Positions 13,496 through 32,117 of a stretch of 32,117 nucleotides of DNA are shown here, piece after piece. The DNA comes from an uncultured Candidatus Saccharibacteria bacterium (GTDB taxonomy: Bacteria > Patescibacteriota > Minisyncoccia > Phycocordibacterales > UBA2100), in assembly GCA_964520015.1 (NCBI GenBank), contig CAZFMA010000027.1, forward strand, positions 1-32,117, written 5' to 3'. The position numbers were made by a program, and so were the translations under genes. The notes below the pieces were generated by a model. That model searched no databases. It was not told the origin of the DNA and saw only the letters and a program-made list of their open reading frames with translations. How positions within the stretch are numbered: the stretch's first letter is position 1; each line of letters starts with the position of its first letter.

Positions 13496-13582
13496 GCCAG
13501 CCCCGCACCCAACTCAAGTTTGCAAGATACTTACACATACAAACAAGAGCGTGAGAGGTGTGGTGCGGGGTATACTTCGGCA

Positions 13583-14425
13583 ATGATTCCGCTCACGTTT
13601 GGGCTCTTTGGTCTCATCATAGGGAGTTTCCTCAATGTGCTTATCATTCGACACGGTGTCCGCTCTCTCGGCGGCAGAAGCTCTTGCATGGCCTGCGGAG
13701 AGTCGCTCGCATGGTCCGAGATGATTCCTGTCCTCTCGTGGATCATCCTTCGCGGCTCGTGTCGTCACTGCAGGGCGCGCATCTCCGTTCAATACCCACT
13801 CGTCGAAGCTTTGACAGCTCTTTTGTTCGTACTTATCGGAGGCTCCGTATCAGCTGGCGCATATCCGGAAGCACTCCCCCTCGTTCTCGTCTATCTTGCA
13901 ATTGCGGCTTTTCTTGTTGCAATTACCGTATATGATTTTCGTCACACTATTATTCCTGATTCATGGGTGTATTCGTTTGCAACTCTTGCGCTTGTCTCGA
14001 CTGCATTAAACAATATCCCCCATGATAGCGTTGCGCTCCTCGGAGTTCTCTTTGCTGGTCCTCTTGCAGCGTCTCCGCTTTTTCTTCTCTGGCTTGTCTC
14101 TCGCGGACGATGGATGGGTTTGGGCGACGCCAAGCTTGCCCTCGGGATCGGCTGGCTTCTGGGTCCCTCTCTCGGGATCATCTCAGTCTTTTTTGCCTTC
14201 ATTATTGGCGCCATCGTATCTGTCGGCATTCTTATTCCGCTTCCGCATCTTATCCGCTTTTTTGGGCTAGCTTCTCTGGATAAGCTCCGCGGAGGGTTTA
14301 CAATGAGAAGCGAAATCCCATTTGGTCCGTTTCTCGTATGTAGCTGCATTATTATATGGCTCTCTCTTCTCTATCACGTAGACCTTCCGTATATCTTCGG
14401 GGATTTACTCTTATTGAGCTCTTAG
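13583..14425 (+). CDS. pilD: Prepilin peptidase / N-methyltransferase PilD
   Basis: MIPLTFGLFGLIIGSFLNV start, the Cys cluster CMACGESL...CRHCRARI, and a polytopic membrane region with GLGDAKL. Confidence 0.9.
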   Translation: MIPLTFGLFGLIIGSFLNVLIIRHGVRSLGGRSSCMACGESLAWSEMIPVLSWIILRGSCRHCRARISVQYPLVEALTALLFVLIGGSVSAGAYPEALPLVLVYLAIAAFLVAITVYDFRHTIIPDSWVYSFATLALVSTALNNIPHDSVALLGVLFAGPLAASPLFLLWLVSRGRWMGLGDAKLALGIGWLLGPSLGIISVFFAFIIGAIVSVGILIPLPHLIRFFGLASLDKLRGGFTMRSEIPFGPFLVCSCIIIWLSLLYHVDLPYIFGDLLLLSS

Positions 14426-15003
14426 TTGTAACCGCCATTATGGTGGTCATCACCTCAATCGTTCTGGTAAGTAGCGGCAGGTTTGGCGGTGTTGTGCAAC
14501 TTGAAAATCTTGCCTATGACGTAGCGCTCTCAGTCCGCCAAGCGCAAGTCTACGGCATATCGGTTGCCAGGTTCGGCACAGGCATATTTACCGCAGGTTA
14601 TGGAGTACATTTCGATATTTCAAGCCCCACCACCTATGCGCTTTTTGCCGACGCCTTGACCTCAAATGGTTTGTACGATTGCGCGAATCCTGTGAATCCG
14701 ACACCGGATAATTGCGAGTTGGTCCAGACAACAAGCATGATGGGCGGGCACAGTATCACCGGATTGTGCACGAAACCCCTCAATGGCCAGGAAAATTGTG
14801 GGGGTGTCACAAAAATCGACGTGGTCTTTATTCGTCCCGAGCCAGACGCGTGGATCAGTGTCGGAGATGTTTCGTGCATACTTCAAAACGGATCATGTCA
14901 GGGAGGTATGCGCGTCATCCTAACTTCACCGCGGGGGGACACGGCAAGTGTCGTGGTGGAGGCGAACGGACAAATTACCGTACGGCGCGGCGCGCAACAA
15001 TAG
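14356..15003 (+). CDS. Minor pilin / pseudopilin
   Basis: LRG/FTLIELLVV prepilin motif. The ATG start overlaps the pilD 3' end by 70 nt. Confidence 0.7.
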   Translation: MALSSLSRRPSVYLRGFTLIELLVVTAIMVVITSIVLVSSGRFGGVVQLENLAYDVALSVRQAQVYGISVARFGTGIFTAGYGVHFDISSPTTYALFADALTSNGLYDCANPVNPTPDNCELVQTTSMMGGHSITGLCTKPLNGQENCGGVTKIDVVFIRPEPDAWISVGDVSCILQNGSCQGGMRVILTSPRGDTASVVVEANGQITVRRGAQQ

Positions 15004-20660: not shown

Positions 20661-20665
20661 TATAA

Positions 20666-20798
20666 CCCATACACCAACATTGGCATTGTTTCTTACTGCG
20701 CCCCCTATCTGGGTCCAGAAGATGGTTATAGATGCAGGCGGCATGGCTTCTCTCCACTAGAAGGTTGAAACGCAGTGATGCCAATGTTGGTGTCGGGG
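20666..20798. mobile_element. Family-2 inverted-repeat element, copy B
   Basis: The 21-nt ends CCCATACACCAACATTGGCAT and ATGCCAATGTTGGTGTCGGGG match at 19 of 21 positions (16 perfect), with a 91-nt spacer. TATAA is repeated at 20661-20665 and 20799-20803. Confidence 0.65.
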
Positions 20799-20834
20799 TA
20801 TAATCCTAGAATGGAACCGACTACAGGAGGCTCA

Positions 20835-21515: not shown

Positions 21516-21835
21516 CTATGCTGGGGTTGGTACTAAAATACGTATTCAAAAAATTGGTACATTACTACCGAATCATCCGTTTGAAGTGGTTTTTTTGGAC
21601 GGGACTGTCTATAAAACTCAGCTTTGCCGGCCCTCTTTAGTAAAGGCAAAACAAAAAACTATCCGCTCACACGGGATTTTCTCTATCAATAAACGGCTTC
21701 TTCGGCTAATGCTGTTGCAGGTACCCGACTTGCACCAGTGCAAGTCCCGTGCCCTTGTCCGTGGCTCAAAGTATGGGCTATTGCCTTTTCTCATAAAATC
21801 TAATAGAATCTAATACGTTAGAAATAGTAGCAAAT

Positions 21836-22918
21836 ATGCCAGAAGAGCAACCTAAATTCGATCATCGTGTCACAAATCCCGATCCTCATATCGTGGCACT
21901 TTTGGCGTCCATAGATGAGATGAGAGGCGTATTTCGCGTCGGTTTGCGCATGACACCGCAGGCCATTACCAGTCTGCGCAGGTCAGTCTTAATAACCTCA
22001 GCCGGTTCCTCAACCCGCATTGAAGGAGCAAGGCTCTCTGATGAGGAAGTGAGAAAAATAATGCAGGGACTCAAAATTCAAAAGTTTGCCGATCGCGATT
22101 CGCAGGAAGTGCAAGGTTATCTCGAAACGCTTCAAAACGTATTTGAGGATTACAAGACGATGCCGCTTCGCGATGGGATGATTAAGTCGCTCCATAAGGA
22201 ACTCCTCAAGTATTCAACGAAGGATGATGTGCATCGCGGCGACTGGAAGCAAAAGGAAAACGTTGTGGGCATCTTCGATAAGGATGGGCAGGTCGCTCGA
22301 ATCATGTTCGAGACAACGCCCGCATATCTTACGGGAAAAGAAATGACGGAACTCCTCGACTGGACGTATGAGGCCCTCGAAAAGGAGCGCTTCCATCCGC
22401 TTCTCATACTAGCGAATTTCATCATCGAGTTTCTGAGAATTCATCCGTTTGAAGACGGCAACGGGCGACTCTCCCGCGTCCTCTCAAATCTCTTGCTTCT
22501 GCGCTCTGGCTACACATTCGTAGAGTACGTGTCGCACGAACAGATCATCGAGGCTCGAAAGGACGAATATTATTTCGCACTGCGCGCATCGCAAGAAACG
22601 TTCAAGTCGCAAAAGAAGCCTGTAGGAGACAGGGAGACGATTGCGCCATGGCTCAACTTCTTTCTCTCTGTCGTGAAGAAACAGGCCGCAGATGCGATAG
22701 CGCTCATCGAGGATGAGACACAGGGGGATATGTTGTCGCCAAAACAAAAAGCGGTCTTCGAATACCTCTCAAAAGTGCGTGAGGGGATCCGCATGGAGAT
22801 CGCTAGAGCGACCGGTATTCTTTTGCCGACGGTAAGTAAGGCTCTTGAGCGGCTAGTTGAACTTGGAAAGATCAAGCGCCTAGGTCGCGGCCGCGCGACG
22901 CGGTATCAGAAAATCTGA
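21836..22918 (+). CDS. Fic-family protein (AMPylase-type) with C-terminal winged-helix domain
   Basis: Fic motif HPFEDGNGRLSR. The N-terminal STRIEG matches the (S/T)xxxE(G/N) auto-inhibitory helix motif. The C-terminal HTH-like region ends in RLGRGRATRYQK. Confidence 0.88.
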   Translation: MPEEQPKFDHRVTNPDPHIVALLASIDEMRGVFRVGLRMTPQAITSLRRSVLITSAGSSTRIEGARLSDEEVRKIMQGLKIQKFADRDSQEVQGYLETLQNVFEDYKTMPLRDGMIKSLHKELLKYSTKDDVHRGDWKQKENVVGIFDKDGQVARIMFETTPAYLTGKEMTELLDWTYEALEKERFHPLLILANFIIEFLRIHPFEDGNGRLSRVLSNLLLLRSGYTFVEYVSHEQIIEARKDEYYFALRASQETFKSQKKPVGDRETIAPWLNFFLSVVKKQAADAIALIEDETQGDMLSPKQKAVFEYLSKVREGIRMEIARATGILLPTVSKALERLVELGKIKRLGRGRATRYQKI

Positions 22919-22921
22919 CCT

Positions 22922-25042
22922 ATGTTTTCGCGAGAAGAGCGGGTCGAGATTTTCAGATCCCTCTTCAGGGGGCGCGAAGACGTGTTTGCACGACGATGGG
23001 AGAAGTGGAGTGGTGGTGTGAGCGGATATGCGCCCATGTATGCGGATCAAGATAAGGAATCATACGCCCCGCTCACGACAGGATGGATTGAGAAACACCT
23101 CATTGGTACTGCAACACTTGGAGCATATCCGTTGCTTAAGGACAATACGTCACTTTTCATCGTCGCTGATTTCGATGGAGATAGCTGGCGCAAGGCCGTC
23201 CAGAAATTTCTTGATGTGTGCAAAAAGCACGAACTCCATGTTGCCGTAGAGCGATCGCGTTCCGGAAAAGGCGCACATGTGTGGTGCTTTTTCTCTGCAT
23301 CATATCCTGCATACAAAAGCCGCCGCATTTTCCTCGCACTGCTGCGCGAAGCAGGATGCATTGACCCGCTGGAAAAGAACGAGGGATTCGACCGTCTGTT
23401 TCCGAATCAGGACTACTTGTCAGGTAAAGGACTTGGAAATCTCATCGCGCTGCCACTTCAGGGAGAATCGAGAAAGCGTGGCAACACTGTTTTCCTCGAT
23501 CCGGACAACAATTTTAATATCGTAGCCGACCAATGGCAATACCTACATGATATCCCGCGGGCTAGTATGGAGGAGCTTGACCATCTAGCGAGTCTGGACT
23601 TTCCTGCAGAAGAAAAGTCTCCCTCGAAACCCGCCCGCTTTGGTAAGACACTTGTTCTGACGCTCGAAAGCACGATTTCAATCCCCAAAAACATTCTGCC
23701 ACCCCACCTCGCTTCGTTCTTGCGGGAAGAACTCAACATTCTCAATATCGGCTACATCGTCAAAGAACGTGCGGGTCTGCCGACCTATGGCGAAAAGAAA
23801 TTTATCAAGACGCTGGAACAGACCGCCGACGCAATTCTCGTACCCCGCAGGTTCCTCAAAAGTCTCTATGCATGGCTCGACGAACGAAAAATCAAATATC
23901 GCATCATCGATAATCGATTGACGCTCGACCCTGTCGGGCTCCGGTCCACGCACACTATGCTGTCCTATCAGGAATCGGCAGTAGCCGCCTTTGATTCAAA
24001 GGAGCAAGGAATTCTCGTAGCCCCTGCAGGCGCGGGAAAAACATTTATGGGACTTGAAATCATCGCGCGGAAAAAGCAACCTGCGATAATTCTGACGCAC
24101 CGCAGACAGATATACGACCAGTGGCTGGAGCGAGTCGAGCATGGCTTTGGAATTCCTAAAACCAAGATCGGACAAATCGGCGGAGTGAAGAAAAATCCAA
24201 GCCAACCGATCACAGTCGCTATGGTACAAACACTCGCGCGTATGAAAGACATACATACGATCGCGGCTCAATTCGGCATGGTTCTTATTGACGAATGTCA
24301 CCATATGCCATCACGGATGTTCCGCGATGTGATTTCGAAATTCCCTGCACGGTATCGATTCGGACTCACCGCGACTCCATCGCGTAAGTATAATGACGAG
24401 AAATTAATTGGAGCATATCTTGGAGAGATTATTCACACGATCGACAAGGCAGAGATGCAAAGAGTTCCACAATCGCACGAACAAGTAGAGGACAGCGATG
24501 CAGTCGTCGTGAGGACGACAAGTCTTGCAACGCCATTCGGTACCTCGTCCCGTGATTTTCAACTTATATCGAAAGTACTTTCAAGCGACGCAAACCGAAA
24601 CGCGCTGATCGCCGCGGATATCGCGCGTGAGGCGCGGGAAGGCAGGAAATGTCTCGTGCTCACGGAGCGCAAGGAGCATGCGGAAATGCTTCGGGCATAT
24701 TTGCGACGCGATTTCGAGACAATCATGTTTTCCGGCGACCTGTCATCACGGCAACGCGCCTTCGCGCTGCAAAAAATAAAAGGTGGGAGGTTCCGTATCC
24801 TGATCGCGACGGGACAAATTCTGGGAGAAGGGGCAGACATAGCAGATCTTGAAGTTCTCTTTCTCGCATTTCCAGTTTCATTCCACGGCAAGCTTGCGCA
24901 ATATATCGGGCGTATTCGCAGGGAGGGAGGTGCCAAGAAAGTCTATGATTACCGGGATGCGGACGTACCGATCCTCGAAAAACTCTGGAAGAAACGAGCA
25001 ACGTATTATCGTAAGAACGATTTCGCAATAGAGGGTGTGTAA
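22922..25042 (+). CDS. Archaeo-eukaryotic primase (prim-pol) domain fused to an SF2 DEAD/DEAH-type helicase
   Basis: The N-terminus has FRGREDVFARRWE, ADFDGD (DxD) and SRSGKGAHVW (sGxGxH). Helicase motifs are APAGAGKT (I), LIDECHH (II), GLTATP (III) and QYIGRIRR (VI). It starts 3 nt after the Fic stop. Confidence 0.85.
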   Translation: MFSREERVEIFRSLFRGREDVFARRWEKWSGGVSGYAPMYADQDKESYAPLTTGWIEKHLIGTATLGAYPLLKDNTSLFIVADFDGDSWRKAVQKFLDVCKKHELHVAVERSRSGKGAHVWCFFSASYPAYKSRRIFLALLREAGCIDPLEKNEGFDRLFPNQDYLSGKGLGNLIALPLQGESRKRGNTVFLDPDNNFNIVADQWQYLHDIPRASMEELDHLASLDFPAEEKSPSKPARFGKTLVLTLESTISIPKNILPPHLASFLREELNILNIGYIVKERAGLPTYGEKKFIKTLEQTADAILVPRRFLKSLYAWLDERKIKYRIIDNRLTLDPVGLRSTHTMLSYQESAVAAFDSKEQGILVAPAGAGKTFMGLEIIARKKQPAIILTHRRQIYDQWLERVEHGFGIPKTKIGQIGGVKKNPSQPITVAMVQTLARMKDIHTIAAQFGMVLIDECHHMPSRMFRDVISKFPARYRFGLTATPSRKYNDEKLIGAYLGEIIHTIDKAEMQRVPQSHEQVEDSDAVVVRTTSLATPFGTSSRDFQLISKVLSSDANRNALIAADIAREAREGRKCLVLTERKEHAEMLRAYLRRDFETIMFSGDLSSRQRAFALQKIKGGRFRILIATGQILGEGADIADLEVLFLAFPVSFHGKLAQYIGRIRREGGAKKVYDYRDADVPILEKLWKKRATYYRKNDFAIEGV

Positions 25043-25132: not shown

Positions 25133-25378
25133 ATGACAAACAGCACTATCATACCTGTCTCGATGCCACATCGCATGGCGGCTATAGTCGATGTGCGAGC
25201 ACGGAGACTTGCGATGACACGCTCGGAGTATATCCGCACACTCGTTAGGCGCGAAGTTGAGGGAGGTGAGTCGCACGGTGCGACCGTAGCACGCGCACTA
25301 CAAGTCGCGGCGCATGAGCTCAAGGCAGGCAAGGCGCGCGTTCTCAAGAGTGGCGGACTCTCCGCGATGCTGAAGTAA
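25133..25378 (+). CDS. Ribbon-helix-helix (CopG-like) antitoxin
   Basis: 81 aa. IPVSMPHRMAAIVDVRARRLAMTRSEYIRTLV fits a beta-strand plus two helices. The stop is 1 nt before the toxin ATG. Confidence 0.7.
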   Translation: MTNSTIIPVSMPHRMAAIVDVRARRLAMTRSEYIRTLVRREVEGGESHGATVARALQVAAHELKAGKARVLKSGGLSAMLK

Positions 25379-25379
25379 T

Positions 25380-25649
25380 ATGCGGCCGGTAGCCATCATC
25401 CTCTATTCATCACATTTTCGTCGACGGTTCAAAAAATTGGATACTACCCTTGCGAGCGAAGTAGCCGCACGTGAAAGACAATTTCGTGCGGACTGTTTTC
25501 ATCCATCGCTCGACACGCATAAGCTGAGCGGAAAACTCAAGGGATTTTGGTCGTTTTCGATCACTCGGAAATACCGCGTCATGTTTCAGTTCCTCTCGGC
25601 GCACGAAGTGTACTTTGTCGATGTGGATGATCACGACCTATACCGATGA
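25380..25649 (+). CDS. RelE/ParE-superfamily toxin
   Basis: 89 aa with HPSLDTHKLSGKLKGFWSFSITRKYRVMFQF, typical of RelE/YafQ-like mRNA interferases. Confidence 0.7.
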   Translation: MRPVAIILYSSHFRRRFKKLDTTLASEVAARERQFRADCFHPSLDTHKLSGKLKGFWSFSITRKYRVMFQFLSAHEVYFVDVDDHDLYR

Positions 25650-25766: not shown

Positions 25767-26384
25767 CTAGGAAACGTTTACGGATTTCGGAGAAGCAGGG
25801 CCATATGCACACTTTATTAACACGCCTCGCGTTTTTCTGGAATATTGAGAACGAATCCAATCATAGTTTTTTACGGCCGCTAAAGCTTCTAGATTTGCAG
25901 GATCGGTAACCATCTTCCCTGCTTCTTCTAAGGTCATCCATTTCGTGTCGAGAAACTCCTGCGGATCAATAGTAGAACCGCTTCCATCGGTAGGAACTAA
26001 GTACCAAACATCATAATGCGTTTTGCACGACTGAACTTTGTTTTCGATCCGCGTAATCGTAAGAAGGAATGGTGTTGGTGCTTCCTTGAAAAGATCTTTG
26101 ACCCCAAGCTCCTCATCAATTTCTCGATTCAATGCTTCCAAAAGCGTCTCTCCCTCATCAATGTGACCTCCGGGCGAAATCCAAAGACCTGACTTCTTGT
26201 GGTAAACAATAAATACCTTCTTCGCACCAGGGTCAAATGGAAGAAAATACGCGCAAAAATGACTGGTAGGATTTTTGTCTCGTGTTGGCAGGCCTTCAAT
26301 CAGTCTCAGCTGGAAAGCCTTGTAAGTACTCTTGTCGCAAAGAGAGTAGCCTATGACATTTGTGATTGATCTTATTGTTTCCAT
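25767..26384 (-). CDS. Nudix hydrolase
   Basis: Nudix box GGHIDEGETLLEALNREIDEELG. It starts 9 nt after the Pif1-like stop. The C-terminal 30 aa are of doubtful quality. Confidence 0.8.
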   Translation of the reverse strand: METIRSITNVIGYSLCDKSTYKAFQLRLIEGLPTRDKNPTSHFCAYFLPFDPGAKKVFIVYHKKSGLWISPGGHIDEGETLLEALNREIDEELGVKDLFKEAPTPFLLTITRIENKVQSCKTHYDVWYLVPTDGSGSTIDPQEFLDTKWMTLEEAGKMVTDPANLEALAAVKNYDWIRSQYSRKTRGVLIKCAYGPASPKSVNVS

Positions 26385-26393
26385 GGAATTCGC

Positions 26394-28085
26394 CTAATCG
26401 CTATCATACAGCATTCGCGCGAGGCGAAGAGCATCGTAAGTATACGCGCCACCAAGTTTTTCAAAGACAGGCGTGAGACGTTCAAGGCCGAGTTCGCGGA
26501 ATGCGGCGTGGATGATGGGAAGAGATTGTTTGAGCGTGGGAGAGACGAGCGGTTCTATGTCGGAGCGGCCGATGCGGCTTTTTGAGTAAAGATCGAAAAT
26601 GTGCGAGGAAATGGTTGTCTCGACCAATCCCCGTGCCTGCGCGATCTCGCGAATCGATTTGCCGCTTTTCAAAAGGGCGAACGTTGCTTCGAGTGTGGGA
26701 ATGCGGACTTCTTTCTTCTTCGGCCCCGCCCCGGCTTTCCCGCCGCATGCGCGGACAAAGTTTTCATGCATGGTTTCCAGCTCTTGCTTTGACATTGCTG
26801 CAAACTTTTCTCGCGATTTTTGTGAGTAGTCGCGAAATTCCGAGTCTTTCACCAGAATCTCGGGATGCACTTCGAGCGCACGTTGGTTCAAACCGGCGAG
26901 CGAGAGTCCGGCGAGCGTGCGCACGCGCGAGAGGGCGACATACCCTTGTCCGTATTCAAAGGTATCGGAGAGGTCCATGTGTGCGGCATCGAGCGACATC
27001 CCCTGGCTTTTATGCACGGTCATCGCCCACGCGAGCCGCAATGGAACTTGGATGATCCGCGCGAGGACTCGTCCGCCGTCTTCGATGCGCCATTCGTCCG
27101 GCTCTGCGAATATTGCTTTCCCGGCGTTGGTCTTCACGATCGGATATCCAGTGTCCGCGAATCCTGTAACGATGCCGAGCGTACCATTTACATATCGGTG
27201 CGTCGTCACATCGTTCTTGGTGAACATAACTCGTGCGCCGATCTTGAGCGAAAGTATTTCGGGCGAAAGGCAGCCGCGCTTCAGTGCCGCGACGAGCACC
27301 TCCCTGCCGCGACTTTCCATTTCAAATTGTTTCGTCGTGCCTACAAGTTTCGCTAATTCCGCATCATTGATCGCGTTGACATCGGTATTGTGCGAGTAGA
27401 GTTGTGTAATGCCGTCTTTCGGTGTGCGGGAGTAGCGCGTACGAAGTAATTGCCGATGTGGCTCTACTACGGTTGCGCGTCGAATTGCCGAGAGAAATTC
27501 GAGAAACACTGCATCTTCCTGCCGATGCTGCTCCGAGAGGTAGCAGACGAGCGGATTGAGCGTATTCCAGGTTGGAGAGAAAAATGCGAATTGTTGCTTT
27601 CCAACATCGGGAGTGAACGATTCCTGATCTTCGTCGTTTTCTCGTCTGTTGATCGGCGGAAGCTGGAAGAAATCGCCGACTAGAATGACTTGCAGCCCGC
27701 CGAAAGGTTGCGGGTTGTGGCGGACCTCTCGACACACCGCTTCTACCATCGAGAGCGTCCGCGCCGAGAGCATTGAGACCTCGTCAATAATGAGTATCTG
27801 TGCATTGCCGACTCGCCGGACGACATTTCTGTTCTGTCCGATGCGGTCGAGATCATACTTTGTGAGATCACGTCGTATACCGATACCGCTCCATGAATGG
27901 ATCGTGAATCCGCCGATATGGGTTGCGGCAATGCCGGTCGATGCCGTGATCGCGGGCTCGATGCCGCAGGAGCGCAAGTGCGCGACATATTGATTGATAG
28001 TGTGCGTTTTTCCGCTTCCTGGCTCGCCGGTCAAAAAGACATTTGCGCCGGTTTTCAAGATTGCGAGAGCTTCGGCTTGAGTCAT
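26394..28085 (-). CDS. Pif1/RecD-like SF1B DNA helicase with C-terminal HTH domain
   Basis: Walker A GEPGSGKTH, LIIDEVSM, VGDFFQLPP, the TVHKSQGMS and YVALSRV motifs, and a helical C-terminal extension. Confidence 0.85.
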   Translation of the reverse strand: MTQAEALAILKTGANVFLTGEPGSGKTHTINQYVAHLRSCGIEPAITASTGIAATHIGGFTIHSWSGIGIRRDLTKYDLDRIGQNRNVVRRVGNAQILIIDEVSMLSARTLSMVEAVCREVRHNPQPFGGLQVILVGDFFQLPPINRRENDEDQESFTPDVGKQQFAFFSPTWNTLNPLVCYLSEQHRQEDAVFLEFLSAIRRATVVEPHRQLLRTRYSRTPKDGITQLYSHNTDVNAINDAELAKLVGTTKQFEMESRGREVLVAALKRGCLSPEILSLKIGARVMFTKNDVTTHRYVNGTLGIVTGFADTGYPIVKTNAGKAIFAEPDEWRIEDGGRVLARIIQVPLRLAWAMTVHKSQGMSLDAAHMDLSDTFEYGQGYVALSRVRTLAGLSLAGLNQRALEVHPEILVKDSEFRDYSQKSREKFAAMSKQELETMHENFVRACGGKAGAGPKKKEVRIPTLEATFALLKSGKSIREIAQARGLVETTISSHIFDLYSKSRIGRSDIEPLVSPTLKQSLPIIHAAFRELGLERLTPVFEKLGGAYTYDALRLARMLYDSD

Positions 28086-28286: not shown

Positions 28287-28330
28287 GAGTGACTATGGGG
28301 ACCGGAACTGGTTCCGGCATCACAATGCTG

Positions 28331-28402
28331 TTGCGGGGGCGGGACTTGCACCCGCGACCTCAAGGTTATGAGCCTTGCGAGCTACTACTGCTCCACCCCG
28401 CT
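28331..28402 (-). tRNA. tRNA-Met (CAU), initiator-like
   Basis: Manual fold: AGCGGGG-TG-GAGC-AGTAGTA-GCTC-G-CAAGG-CTCATAA-CCTTG-AGGTC-GCGGG-TGCAAGT-CCCGC-CCCCGCA-A. It closely parallels E. coli tRNA-fMet, including an unpaired 1-72 position (A x A). CCA is not encoded. Confidence 0.8.
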
Positions 28403-28458
28403 TTTTCAAATCTACTACAAAGAGAGTGGTGTTGCAATGAAATGGTACTATTTTCTGT

Positions 28459-28878
28459 ATGAAGAAAACGGAAAGTGCCGGCGGCATCGTACAAAATGTT
28501 CGCGGTGAGATTGCACTCGTTCTTCATGGCACTGGCGAGGCTTGGTGGGGCTTCCCCAAAGGGCATGTAGATAAGGGAGAAAATGCAGAGATGGCAGCGC
28601 GCCGCGAGATTTTGGAAGAAACGGGATTAAAAAGTACGACACTCTTGAAAGACCTGGGATCATATAGTCGATACAAGGCGAAAGTGGGTGGGGGAGACGA
28701 TGAAAGTGAATACAAAACGATTCATATGTTTCTCTTTTCGACAACAGAAGAAGCGCTTGCGCCTCTTGACCCAGCTCATCCAGAAGCCCGCTGGGTTGCC
28801 CCAAAAGAAGTAGCGCAGATGCTCTCAAATCCCAAAGACAAAATATTCTGGCTGGACGTACTGTCGCAGCTCTCTTAA
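28459..28878 (+). CDS. Nudix hydrolase
   Basis: Nudix box GHVDKGENAEMAARREILEETG. 139 aa. Confidence 0.85.
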   Translation: MKKTESAGGIVQNVRGEIALVLHGTGEAWWGFPKGHVDKGENAEMAARREILEETGLKSTTLLKDLGSYSRYKAKVGGGDDESEYKTIHMFLFSTTEEALAPLDPAHPEARWVAPKEVAQMLSNPKDKIFWLDVLSQLS

Positions 28879-29054
28879 GCCTCTATGATCGCCGCGATGA
28901 CGATTTGAAGAATCCCAAAAAAAACGAAGAGAAGAAATCCGAGGAGGAGTTGTTTCCACTCACCCCTCAAGAGGCCGGCCCCGATGCAGTAGATGAGAAA
29001 GACGCCGGATAAGGCAAAGAGGGCATGATTCACTTGCATGACGATACCCCACAT
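28875..29054 (-). CDS. Possible 59-aa two-TM membrane peptide
   Basis: My own translation, below the ORF-track cutoff: MWGIVMQVNHALFALSGVFLIYCIGAGLLRGEWKQLLLGFLLFVFFGILQIVIAAIIEA. Its stop shares a TTAA with the convergent Nudix stop. Confidence 0.35.
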   Translation of the reverse strand: MWGIVMQVNHALFALSGVFLIYCIGAGLLRGEWKQLLLGFLLFVFFGILQIVIAAIIEA

Positions 29055-29104
29055 AGCCGTGAGCGTATCACGGAATATTTTGATTGTGGAGTCTCGAAAT
29101 TATT

Positions 29105-29178
29105 GCGCGAGTGAAGGGACTCGAACCCTCGACCTTTCCCGTGACAGGGGAACGCTCTAACCAACTGAGCTACACCCG
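29105..29178 (-). tRNA. tRNA-Asp (GUC)
   Basis: Manual cloverleaf: GCGGGTG-TA-GCTC-AGTTGGTTA-GAGC-G-TTCCC-CTGTCAC-GGGAA-AGGTC-GAGGG-TTCGAGT-CCCTT-CACTCGC-G. Discriminator G73. Confidence 0.9.
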
Positions 29179-29236
29179 CAATAGAGACACAATACTTTAA
29201 AATCTGATTGGTATCAAATCAGCAGGTGTCGGCAGG

Positions 29237-29308
29237 TGTCGGGGGACGGGAACGATCCGTCGACCTAGCGCTTATGAAACGCTCGCTCTACCACTGAGCT
29301 ACCCCGAC
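29237..29308 (-). tRNA. tRNA with CAU anticodon (elongator Met or lysidine-dependent Ile2)
   Basis: GTCGGGG-TA-GCTC-AGTGGTA-GAGC-G-AGCGT-TTCATAA-GCGCT-AGGTC-GACGG-ATCGTTC-CCGTC-CCCCGAC-A. Full 7-bp acceptor stem. The T-loop is unusual. Confidence 0.8.
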
Positions 29309-31407: not shown

Positions 31408-31480
31408 GCCGACGTAGCTCAGTTGGTAGAGCACGTCCTTGGTAAGGACGAGGTCTCCGGTTCAATCCCGGACGTCGGCT
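31408..31480 (+). tRNA. tRNA-Thr (GGU)
   Basis: GCCGACG-TA-GCTC-AGTTGGTA-GAGC-A-CGTCC-TTGGTAA-GGACG-AGGTC-TCCGG-TTCAATC-CCGGA-CGTCGGC-T. Canonical cloverleaf. Confidence 0.92.
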
Positions 31481-32117
31481 CAAGAATCAAACTCAACGGC
31501 TTTTCAGAGGCCGAAATGCGCGCGGCGCGAAGCGCCGCGTAGGGGGGAATGGGGTTTCCGCGCGCTTCGCGCGCGTGGATTGAGAGATTCAATCCGAAAA
31601 CTTTTTGGAGGGGGGATTTTTTGGAGGGGATGTCTTCTGATTTTGCTATTTCATCAAGACGCGAAGCGTCTTGTATCCAGTTTCTGACAGGTTCAACCCA
31701 CGCGGCGGGGGCTCGTTCAAGACGGACGATTTGCTCCTCAATCGTCCGGCGCTCTCCCATAAGAGCGCGGCGGCGGGACAAGTAGTCCTCACGTTCAATA
31801 TCCTCGGCGACGTACAAGTCCGTGAGACGTTCAAATTTGTTAGAAATATCAAAAACTTTGTCCCGCAGTCCTTGAACGGCCTCCGCCGCCGTTTTTGAGG
31901 CGCTAGCCGCTTCTATGTCGAGCATCGCCAAGAGTGGCGATATCCATTCTTGCGGCATGGCGTACTCGCCAAGAAGCGCCGAAAGTTGCGAGTTCAACAA
32001 CTCGCTTCGCATCGGCGCTTCTTTGCATTTCACGGCCTTATTTTTTCGAGTACAGCGATAATAAGTGTAGTAATGCACATTGCCGTTCTTTTGGTGCTTC
32101 TCTTTTACCTCGGCCGT
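31419..32117 (-). CDS. Large serine recombinase, C-terminal part (partial; N-terminus beyond the window)
   Basis: Zinc-ribbon segment HYYTYYRCTRKNKAVKC followed by a coiled-coil region typical of large serine recombinases. The frame stays open to the window edge (TAEVKEKHQKNGNV...). The last 62 nt of the ORF are antisense to tRNA-Thr. Confidence 0.8.
   Translation of the reverse strand, partial: TAEVKEKHQKNGNVHYYTYYRCTRKNKAVKCKEAPMRSELLNSQLSALLGEYAMPQEWISPLLAMLDIEAASASKTAAEAVQGLRDKVFDISNKFERLTDLYVAEDIEREDYLSRRRALMGERRTIEEQIVRLERAPAAWVEPVRNWIQDASRLDEIAKSEDIPSKKSPLQKVFGLNLSIHAREARGNPIPPYAALRAARISASEKPLSLILEPTSGIEPETSSLPRTCSTN

Follow-up and report, generated by a model that had tools for sequence, protein, structure and literature searches.

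In a 32,117-nucleotide stretch of an uncultured Candidatus Saccharibacteria bacterium (contig CAZFMA010000027.1, hereafter the window), a gene for a Fic protein (fic; 21836-22918, + strand, 360 aa) ends 3 nt before a gene for a 706-aa protein (22922-25042, +), in which an archaeo-eukaryotic primase (AEP)-type PrimPol (Z1568-like/AEP-TOTE) is fused to an XPB-like superfamily 2 (SF2) ATPase. Homology places the 706-aa protein, from Patescibacteria, in the IEE family, which is named after the insertion sequence (IS)-excision enhancer of E. coli; we refer to the protein as the IEE-like protein. The pairing of fic with the IEE-like gene is real, modular and one-sided. Across the family, the same-strand slot directly upstream of the IEE-like gene (position -1) is repeatedly filled by toxin modules bearing a helix-turn-helix (HTH) part: Fic with a winged HTH (wHTH), AbiEi/AbiEii, HipB/HipA, HigB/HigA and AlbA_2-HATPase_c_4-wHTH. 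The interpretation we favour, with confidence that is about evenly balanced, is that the two genes of the window form a bicistronic cassette whose toxin front-end, itself autoregulated, would drive a DNA-level enzyme directed against mobile elements.

The two proteins and their junction

Both proteins belong, as far as their sequences tell, to known and partly characterised families. An earlier note on this DNA, made from the letters alone, had delimited the two open reading frames (ORFs) and the gap as given above and had quoted the motifs STRIEG, HPFEDGNGRLSR, FRGREDVFARRWE, DFDGD, SGKGAHVW and DECH, all of which we recovered; its assignments of Fic and of AEP/SF2 domains were upheld by profile searches (Pfam, PADLOC), far above chance. 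The Fic protein scores 54.5 bits on Pfam Fic (cutoff 24) and 139.6 bits on the PADLOC SoFic model (E 3.9e-41, aa 47-357), and its closest solved relative is the Fido-wHTH protein of PDB 8UQU (119 bits, aa 20-357). The active-site motif HPFEDGNGRLSR (aa 203-214; 22442-22477, +) is present in the ORF translation and conforms to HxFx(D/E)GNGRxxR, and the inhibitory motif STRIEG (aa 59-64; 22010-22027, +) conforms to (S/T)xxxE(G/N). STRIEG is invariant in 13 homologs (alignment A2), as are H203, P204, F205, D207, G208, N209, G210 and R211 of the active site (HPFxDGNGR, aa 203-211). At the C-terminus lies a winged helix (aa ~295-358; 22718-22909, +) with a weak Pfam DIP2311-like_C match; orthologs give MarR_2, HTH_IclR and HTH_24 matches in this region, and both the SoFic model and 8UQU align through aa 357. 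Given these motifs and full-length matches, we classify the window Fic as an AMPylase of class II and SoFic type that carries a winged helix at its C-terminus and is predicted to be auto-inhibited and catalytically competent. Orthology to SoFic of S. oneidensis is not indicated, as the NCBIfam equivalog NF046030 gives 42.6 bits against a cutoff of 550, and a phmmer comparison with 3EQX gives only 26 bits. As described for E. coli and other homologs, SoFic-type Fic proteins are toxic and act against phage as single genes (Millman et al., 2022; Wu et al., 2025).

The IEE-like protein matches Pfam AEP-TOTE (PF22548) at 245.7 bits over aa 6-221 (cutoff 27), ResIII at 96.9 bits and Helicase_C at 42.1 bits, with a DEAD match as well, and the PADLOC model for CAS-associated PrimPol at 206.8 bits. 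Its AEP PrimPol domain (22937-23584, +) contains FRGREDVFARRWE (aa 15-27), DFDGD (aa 83-87) and SGKGAHVW (aa 114-121), and the catalytic residues D83, D85, H119 and D157 are all invariant in alignment A1. It is followed by a linker domain (aa ~243-340; 23648-23941, +; the boundary is approximate) that would correspond to the N-terminal damage-recognition-like domain of archaeal XPB, and by the SF2 ATPase core (aa 345-672; 23954-24937, +), whose motifs GAGKT (K373), DECH (457-460), TAT (483-485) and QxxGR (R664) are likewise invariant in A1 and whose best PDB matches are XPB/Rad25. Foldseek searches with an AlphaFold2 model (pLDDT 80.9) matched its N-terminus to the CAPP PrimPol structures 7NQD/7NQE (TM 0.79-0.82, 27-28% identity) and the model to the archaeal XPB chains 6P4O/6P4F (437 aa) over 480-490 columns, the XPB N-terminal domain included.

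BLASTP aligns the window protein end to end with IEE of E. coli O157 (iee, ECs_1305, from the O157:H7 Sakai genome) at 32% identity over 747 columns (E 3e-113). The functional residues pair up as D142/D83, D144/D85, H178/H119, D216/D157, K451/K373 and R735/R664 (IEE/window), the last two pairs being the Walker-A Lys and the Arg finger, and DECH is aligned too. Since E. coli IEE itself scores 329.2 bits on AEP-TOTE and aligns over its full length, the labels 'AEP-TOTE', 'Z1568-like AEP' and 'IEE family' evidently denote one and the same group. Few factors encoded by the host are known, to our knowledge, to remove insertion sequences actively; IEE is among them, and work on it has essentially been confined to one organism. 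The E. coli protein has 786 aa, with a Z1568-like AEP domain fused to an SF2 helicase; it is a Mn-dependent, error-prone DNA polymerase of the repair or microhomology-mediated end joining (MMEJ) type, both domains are needed to join 3' overhangs by microhomology, and the helicase domain is a DNA-dependent ATPase without unwinding activity (PMC9943667). Genetically, it enhances transposase-dependent IS excision (PMC9943667; bioRxiv 10.1101/2023.06.07.543989).

The family is large: a word-indexed search gave at least 8000 matches, the AEP domain by itself makes up 5323 clusters at 50% identity, and species-representative genomes of many phyla contain at least 592 loci. Patescibacteria forms measure about 700 aa and Bacteroidota forms about 985-1143 aa. 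Several architectural variants were seen. Bacteroidota proteins (L017, L019, L024, L026, L036 and others) have a C-terminal extension of ~300-400 aa with no Pfam match, the Planctomycetota-type proteins of L066 and L087 have a nuclease domain of DUF559/Vsr-like type (REase_MTES_1575) at the C-terminus, and P0248 (1104 aa) has an extra N-terminal primase-like domain (DIDP...SGNGCQLW) before a complete IEE-like protein, giving a double-AEP architecture.

The two genes meet in a junction of the form TGA-cct-ATG (22916-22924, +), a 3-nt spacer with both ORFs in the same frame; its context reads ...AAA ATC TGA cct ATG. A junction scan found no terminator between fic and the IEE-like gene, and the geometry of translational coupling described in the earlier note stands. 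Junctions of the same type, with 2-4 nt, occur in L001, L003, L176, L178, L179, L181 and L182, and that of L178 is identical to the window's. Stop-codon readthrough, which the shared frame might suggest, was considered and rejected, as the stops vary (TGA, TAA, TAG) and in some loci 2 or 4 nt separate the genes. A conserved promoter/operator-like region precedes fic only (21781-21822, +; -35-like TTGCCT at 21781-21786 and -10-like TAGAAT at 21804-21809), and the IEE-like gene has no such signals of its own. The -10-like hexamer is overlapped by a perfect tandem repeat, AATCTAATA-g-AATCTAATA (21797-21815, +), which is conserved with the promoter region in loci that carry the same lineage of fic (lineage C, see below; L170-L172 and L090). 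DNA homology to these loci begins at 21774-21781. The tandem boxes are a candidate operator for the Fic winged helix.

Partners of IEE-like genes and of Fic

Among the closest relatives of the window, with IEE-like proteins 68-84% identical to the window's and to one another, 7/8 loci (those listed above for the junction) have fic at 2-4 nt upstream of the IEE-like gene, and these pairs sit in several different genomic contexts. The exception, L009, has a split IEE-like gene with an SNF2-SWIM helicase upstream. Family-wide, we surveyed 84 non-redundant loci obtained from contig look-ups and a genome scan, in which ORFs were called and neighbours were sorted by clustering, Pfam and motif checks. 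The -1 same-strand partner was AbiEii in 12/84 loci, with AbiEi or DUF6088 in front of it, a Fic protein with intact active site in 8/84 (plus L059, where it stands beside a disrupted IEE-like gene), an AlbA_2-HATPase_c_4-wHTH protein of the Schlafen AlbA_2 type in 5/84 (L032, L039, L042, L043 and L057; this partner is frequent in Bacteroidota) and HipA in 3/84, with an HTH protein in front. Toxin-type clusters fill this slot in 29 of their 47 occurrences, against a background occupancy of 12% (p about 1e-15), and the gaps upstream of IEE-like genes are 0-11 nt in many loci. On an Acinetobacter plasmid, HigB/HigA lie 25 nt upstream of the IEE-like gene. An independent set of 28 full-length loci from IMG/VR showed the same pattern at lower frequency. 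The possibility raised in the earlier note, that homologs of the two genes are not co-localised in other genomes, was not borne out, with fic upstream in the seven of eight clade relatives and the eight of 84 loci given above.

What the partners have in common may be a DNA-binding domain. The AlbA_2 protein of L032, scanned singly as a representative, has DeoR/HTH_11-type HTH domains, and in L071 an AlbA_2 gene lies downstream (+1) of the IEE-like gene and its product carries the 'Fic-like_C' winged helix found in Fic proteins. Further neighbours of IEE-like genes include type I restriction-modification (R-M) genes, integrases, IS elements and a DUF4143 ATPase, so that their neighbourhood is a defence-island or mobile-element context. 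Full-length homologs (~33% identity) occur in 98 plasmid records, and the contig of L182 is viral according to IMG/VR. Large serine recombinase genes were observed next to toxin-IEE-like cassettes or a few kb away from them (L176:2338-3675, L182:3330-4670 and L004:11874-13229); those of L176 and L182 directly precede fic, and in L004 the recombinase lies near the gene. Serine-recombinase elements may thus at times carry the cassette.

Seen from the side of Fic, the association is different. No full IEE-like gene was found near Fic in 80 metagenomic Fic loci (37-68% identity; 52 of the 80 have at least 1 kb downstream), nor beside any of the four closest Fic homologs that were looked up (P0123, P0124, P0138 and P0148). 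P0123, a 79% identical Fic, shares the ligA-gatC-gatA-membrane-protein synteny of the window without the IEE-like gene, P0124 and P0138 are encoded by solitary fic genes amid housekeeping genes, and the fic gene of P0148 lies 3 nt upstream of hsdM-hsdS-SMODS/SLATT-hsdR. These solitary and R-M-linked homologs show that a Fic-wHTH of the window type is a self-sufficient module that fronts different cargo. In L172 (5001-11065), a Fic 72% identical to the window's is encoded 3 nt before hsdM-hsdS-[SMODS/AGS_C + SLATT_4]-hsdR. Here the same Fic-wHTH stands before a type I R-M operon that contains a CBASS-like nucleotidyltransferase/effector pair.

The Fic partners of the clade fall into three lineages that are 44-54% identical between lineages: A (L001, L179, L181 and L182), B (L003, L176 and L178) and C (the window). 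They do not track the tree of the IEE-like proteins. L176 and L182 share an upstream serine recombinase, the IEE-like gene and a downstream Bles03 gene, with a fic of lineage B in the former and of lineage A in the latter. From this discordance and synteny, it appears that fic has been replaced repeatedly while the fic/IEE-like arrangement was kept.

The window itself is probably a recombinational mosaic. From 21774 to ~22876, which takes in the fic promoter and most of fic, it matches lineage-C solitary or R-M-linked loci at 69-72% nucleotide identity; this homology ends at 22876 in L171 and at 22878 in L172, and the L170 alignment runs on to 22919, stop codon included. The match to paired loci (68-77%) starts at 22839-22896, within the final 20-80 nt of fic (22916 for L009), and extends to 25019; farther downstream, the PIF1 gene of the window matches L001 and L176. 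Over its last 30 nt, fic agrees with L178 at 28/30 positions versus 22/30 for the nearest solitary-lineage gene. A putative recombination seam in the conserved 3' end of fic (22839-22896, +) can be placed only weakly, given few informative sites. We rejected chimerism of the window Fic at the protein level, as it is uniformly lineage C at 60-aa resolution and only the last ~30 nt are of the paired type. The simplest reading would be that a paired locus exchanged its lineage-B fic for one of lineage C, which brought its own conserved promoter. Recombination within the conserved fic 3' end could instead have joined two synteny blocks. A mosaic of this kind would mean that Fic lineages are interchangeable in this position.

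Taken together with the intact catalytic residues of both enzymes, the operon geometry, the positional bias and the exchange of partners lead us to the bicistronic cassette. It would be transcribed from the fic promoter and autoregulated by the winged helix of Fic. AbiEi, HipB and HigA autoregulate their own operons. Behind such a front-end, an error-prone, deletion-promoting polymerase could be kept tightly repressed and be induced together with the toxin on infection or stress. Fic would then act as the growth-arrest arm through AMPylation. The IEE-like enzyme, by analogy with IEE, would be the DNA-level arm and act on intermediates that arise when mobile DNA transposes or replicates, extending and re-annealing their 3' ends by error-prone synthesis, template switching and microhomology-mediated end joining, and the propagation of the mobile DNA would thereby be aborted.

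Weighing the alternatives

Several points weigh against the cassette as we have outlined it. E. coli IEE acts with transposase only and has no toxin neighbour, and IEE-type activity can therefore do without a toxin partner. Splits, truncations and reduction to a stub are common among IEE-like genes (L009, L052, L059, L062 and L118; in L118:949-1120 a 45-aa stub directly follows fic), which suggests that the module is dispensable. Because fic appears to be swapped by homologous recombination within fic, its constant upstream position could be partly mechanical and is no proof of selection. Promoter-like matches are no more frequent than in shuffles. The genome scan contributed the best 80 of at least 592 loci and is biased to Patescibacteria and Bacteroidota. 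As to precedent, we found no IEE-family operons with Fic, AbiE, HipA, HigB or AlbA_2 in the accessible literature, outside of which lies the original 2022 TOTE description (see below) that may cover part of them.

One alternative, unlikely in our view yet credible, is an obligate two-component conflict system with direct biochemical interplay, in which the IEE-like protein is either the antitoxin or a sensor of foreign DNA that releases the toxin. As antitoxin it would restrain Fic in the way AS1 does in E. coli Sofic; as sensor, its activity or its nucleic-acid product would free the toxin in a retron- or DRT-like manner, with Fic, AbiEii, HipA and HigB as interchangeable effectors. The 2-4-nt coupling was kept in eight clade members through at least three fic-lineage replacements, and across phyla the slot is taken by toxins that are unrelated to one another, in the manner of defence systems that swap effectors. 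There is also the precedent of E. coli Sofic, for which the small gene directly downstream encodes a 47-aa peptide, AS1, that acts as antitoxin (Wu et al., 2025), and Sofic is not fully silenced by auto-inhibition alone according to the SoFic/Sofic literature. However, Fic of the same lineage is solitary in the closest relatives, including a syntenic genome without the IEE-like gene, so that a window-type Fic is tolerated without this partner, and it also fronts a type I R-M operon across the same 3-nt gap. In E. coli, IEE works in the absence of a toxin. No co-evolution was seen, the tree of Fic being at odds with that of the IEE-like proteins, and no Fic-IEE fusion ('Rosetta stone') was found among the top matches of either protein, the extra domain of P0248 being primase-like and not Fic. 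The dedicated two-gene system that the earlier note had envisaged is hard to reconcile with a Fic that is mostly solitary or in front of other cargo, with an IEE-like gene that takes at least four other toxin-type partners, and with a window in which the pairing itself is apparently a recombinational mosaic.

Likewise unlikely, we think, is the absence of any functional link, in which conflict and mobile-element genes would simply cluster in variable regions and recombination between fic paralogs would reshuffle the cargo downstream. The mosaic speaks for this: the upstream half and most of fic are syntenic with a genome that has fic and lacks the IEE-like gene, and from the fic 3' end onward the window is syntenic with paired loci. 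What lies behind Fic varies from genome to genome, IEE-like genes often have R-M genes, integrases and IS elements nearby, and the IEE-like gene is frequently pseudogenised. Yet fic recombination cannot explain why several unrelated toxin families are concentrated at the -1 same-strand slot (the p of about 1e-15 given above), and the gaps of 0-11 nt in many loci and the occurrence of the pair in several unrelated genomic contexts within the clade also argue against mere clustering.

More ambitious, and to be regarded as a long shot, is the idea that IEE-family PrimPol-helicases form the conserved core of a widespread modular defence class, in which interchangeable toxins (Fic, AbiEii, HipA, HigB and Schlafen/AlbA_2-like proteins) are coupled to a sensor based on DNA synthesis. 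The enzyme would recognise replication or transposition intermediates of the invader, abort them and license the toxin by its activity or product. If so, it would be a primase-based counterpart of retron/DRT logic, and the enhancement of IS excision in E. coli would be one visible facet of it.

We consider it improbable that a small integrative or plasmid-like mobile element uses the AEP-helicase as its replication primase-helicase, with fic (and AbiE, HipBA or HigBA elsewhere) as its addiction module. A large serine recombinase does lie right upstream of fic in two loci and near the gene in a third, full-length homologs are found in the 98 plasmid records and about 28 IMG/VR contigs, and E. 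coli iee is located within the integrative element SpLE1. Nevertheless, the helicase is XPB-like SF2 and not hexameric SF3/SF4/SF6, the characterised IEE is a repair/MMEJ-type polymerase without unwinding, the window has neither integrase nor flanking repeats and its flank is housekeeping, and a class-II Fic with an intramolecular inhibitor would make a poor addiction module. The full-length fusion was found in 0/50,697 phage genome records, and the consistent phage or plasmid replication context that the earlier note had held open can be set aside.

A canonical TOTE conflict system, in which the AEP-helicase would be the primase component and Fic the effector, is the weakest of the alternatives and very improbable: the Pfam family bears the TOTE name, one NCBI homolog is named accordingly and a toxin-like effector adjoins, but no TPR, S1/CSD/OB or TBP protein was found within 5 kb either side of the pair, and no TPR, CSD/OB or TBP recurred among 97 operonic neighbours or the +-4-gene clusters of the 84 loci. 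This census lists the 25 most frequent neighbour families, and single TPR, CSD or TBP occurrences elsewhere are still possible. TOTE conflict systems were reportedly named by Aravind, Iyer and Burroughs in 2022. The acronym stands for TPR, OB, TBP and Effector (PMC12458937). Fic, AbiEii, HipA and HigB could count as variable effectors in the TOTE style. With the defining TPR-OB and TBP partners absent, membership in TOTE proper is not supported, and only a domain name links the locus to TOTE. That name did not come, as the earlier note had it, from NCBI family models: no NCBIfam model reaches its own cutoff on the 706-aa protein (PrimPol_Msp gives 97.6 against 200), and the label stems from Pfam PF22548 and passed from there into NCBI product names, such as that of homolog P0112. 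The note had missed that the protein belongs, by homology, to the IEE family, which has been characterised by experiment.

If the bicistronic cassette is correct, it offers a testable hypothesis of how a mutagenic IEE-type enzyme stays silent and when it is deployed. By homology, the IEE family reaches into Patescibacteria and is the same as Pfam 'AEP-TOTE', and in many lineages the IEE-like gene is the distal gene behind modules of an autoregulated toxin type. This suggests that the family belongs to the repertoire of defence and anti-mobile-element functions and not to housekeeping repair. Neither the extension to Patescibacteria nor the cassette-like swapping of fic was found in the accessible literature, the original TOTE description aside. 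The swapping of fic alleles and the position of Fic-wHTH before a type I R-M/CBASS-like operon both bear on the way in which SoFic-type proteins become integrated into defence islands. Should the link be only regulatory or accidental, the locus would be an ordinary case of defence-island modularity.

The surrounding locus and comparison with known systems

The upstream flank of the pair is made up of the housekeeping genes ligA, gatC and gatA, followed by a membrane-protein gene, and the downstream side looks variable, with a HigB-like toxin-antitoxin (TA) pair, Nudix genes, Pif1-HTH_40 and tRNAs. The defence or mobile island proposed in the earlier note agrees with the downstream side and not with the upstream one. 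No integrase was found in the window, and a repeat search of the window gave no convincing flanking direct repeats that would mark an insertion. Directly downstream of the IEE-like gene, an 81-aa ORF (25133-25378, +) with no Pfam match is followed 1 nt later by an 89-aa ORF (25380-25649, +) for a HigB/RelE-like toxin (26.8 bits, just below the cutoff of 27). The two look like a TA pair, which with fic upstream would place toxin modules on both sides of the IEE-like gene. The stretch 25767-28085 (-) holds a Nudix gene (25767-26384, -) and a gene for a Pif1-like helicase with C-terminal HTH_40 (26394-28085, -); a second Nudix gene (28459-28878) lies within 28330-29308, and genes for tRNA-Met, tRNA-Asp, tRNA-Met and tRNA-Thr lie within 28330-29308 and 31408-31481. 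The Pif1-HTH_40 gene is syntenic with L001 and L176 at 82-83% identity. A PIF1-HTH_40 or RecQ-HTH_40 helicase as third component of the cassette was rejected, as it occurs in the close clade only, at genome-level identity, and in 0/75 other loci, which amounts to local synteny.

Upstream of fic, at a distance of ~90-125 nt, lies a 44-nt element (21713-21756, unstranded) with the perfect palindromic core GACTTGCAC-ca-GTGCAAGTC (21727-21746), a candidate protein-binding site. It is confined to the window and the lineage-B paired loci L176, L177 and L178, with 93% identity to L178:3819-3862 and 82% to L176/L177 (L176:3786-3824), and its invariant core is TTGCAC-NN-GTGCAA; the copy in L182 is merely degenerate. 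In L176 it lies just downstream of the large serine recombinase gene. The element could be an operator or a recombination site. Support for a serine-integrase att site was not found, with a single copy in the window and none in viral contigs, and a structured RNA was rejected (no Rfam match, fold z-score -1.6, no covariation or compensatory changes). We also dismissed a remnant of fic upstream of the gene: a 14-nt exact copy of Fic-motif codons at 21573 has no tblastn support, ~0.06 such copies are expected by chance, and it was taken as chance. Two further observations concern the window at large, a 22-nt inverted repeat (20665-20686 / 20778-20799; 91% complementary, arms 91 nt apart) that spans the gatA/membrane-protein gap, and an AT-skew trough of -0.33 around 13.5-14.5 kb (13500-14500).

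Compared with known systems, the locus resembles TOTE in an AEP domain family that Pfam named after it and in adjacent toxin-like 'effector' genes, and differs from it in that TPR-OB(CSD) and TBP components were not found in the window or in the surveyed relatives. The CAPP protein of Marinitoga (PDB 7NQD-7NQF) provides the closest solved structure for the AEP domain; the window, however, has no CRISPR-Cas context, and its AEP domain is fused to an XPB-like ATPase and not linked to Cas1/Cas2 or a TPR region. AbiE, HipBA and HigBA elsewhere fill the same slot right upstream of the IEE-like gene and, like Fic-wHTH, combine an HTH part with a toxin, but they are two-gene TA systems with a separate antitoxin, whereas the window Fic holds inhibitor and wHTH in one polypeptide.

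With SoFic and Sofic-AS1 the window Fic shares the class-II type, the N-terminal inhibitory helix, the canonical active site and a C-terminal domain, as well as the strong PADLOC SoFic match and a gene right downstream that is functionally relevant in E. coli (AS1). It differs in not being an ortholog of SoFic of S. oneidensis and in the nature of that downstream gene, which encodes a 706-aa enzyme and not a 47-aa peptide. The closest comparison is with IEE. The window protein is 80 aa shorter and lacks the N-terminal ~45 aa and an AEP-domain insertion of IEE, it comes from Patescibacteria, a phylum absent from the listed IEE hosts, and its gene is coupled at 3 nt behind fic, whereas in SpLE1 the genes before iee are AlpA, DUF3987 and a hypothetical one. 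IS excision, Mn-dependent polymerisation and MMEJ are known for E. coli IEE only. The two proteins nevertheless have the same two-domain architecture, collinear over the full length, the same AEP-TOTE, ResIII and Helicase_C matches, the same structural relatives (CAPP PrimPol and UvsW/XPB-type SF2) and the same identified catalytic residues.

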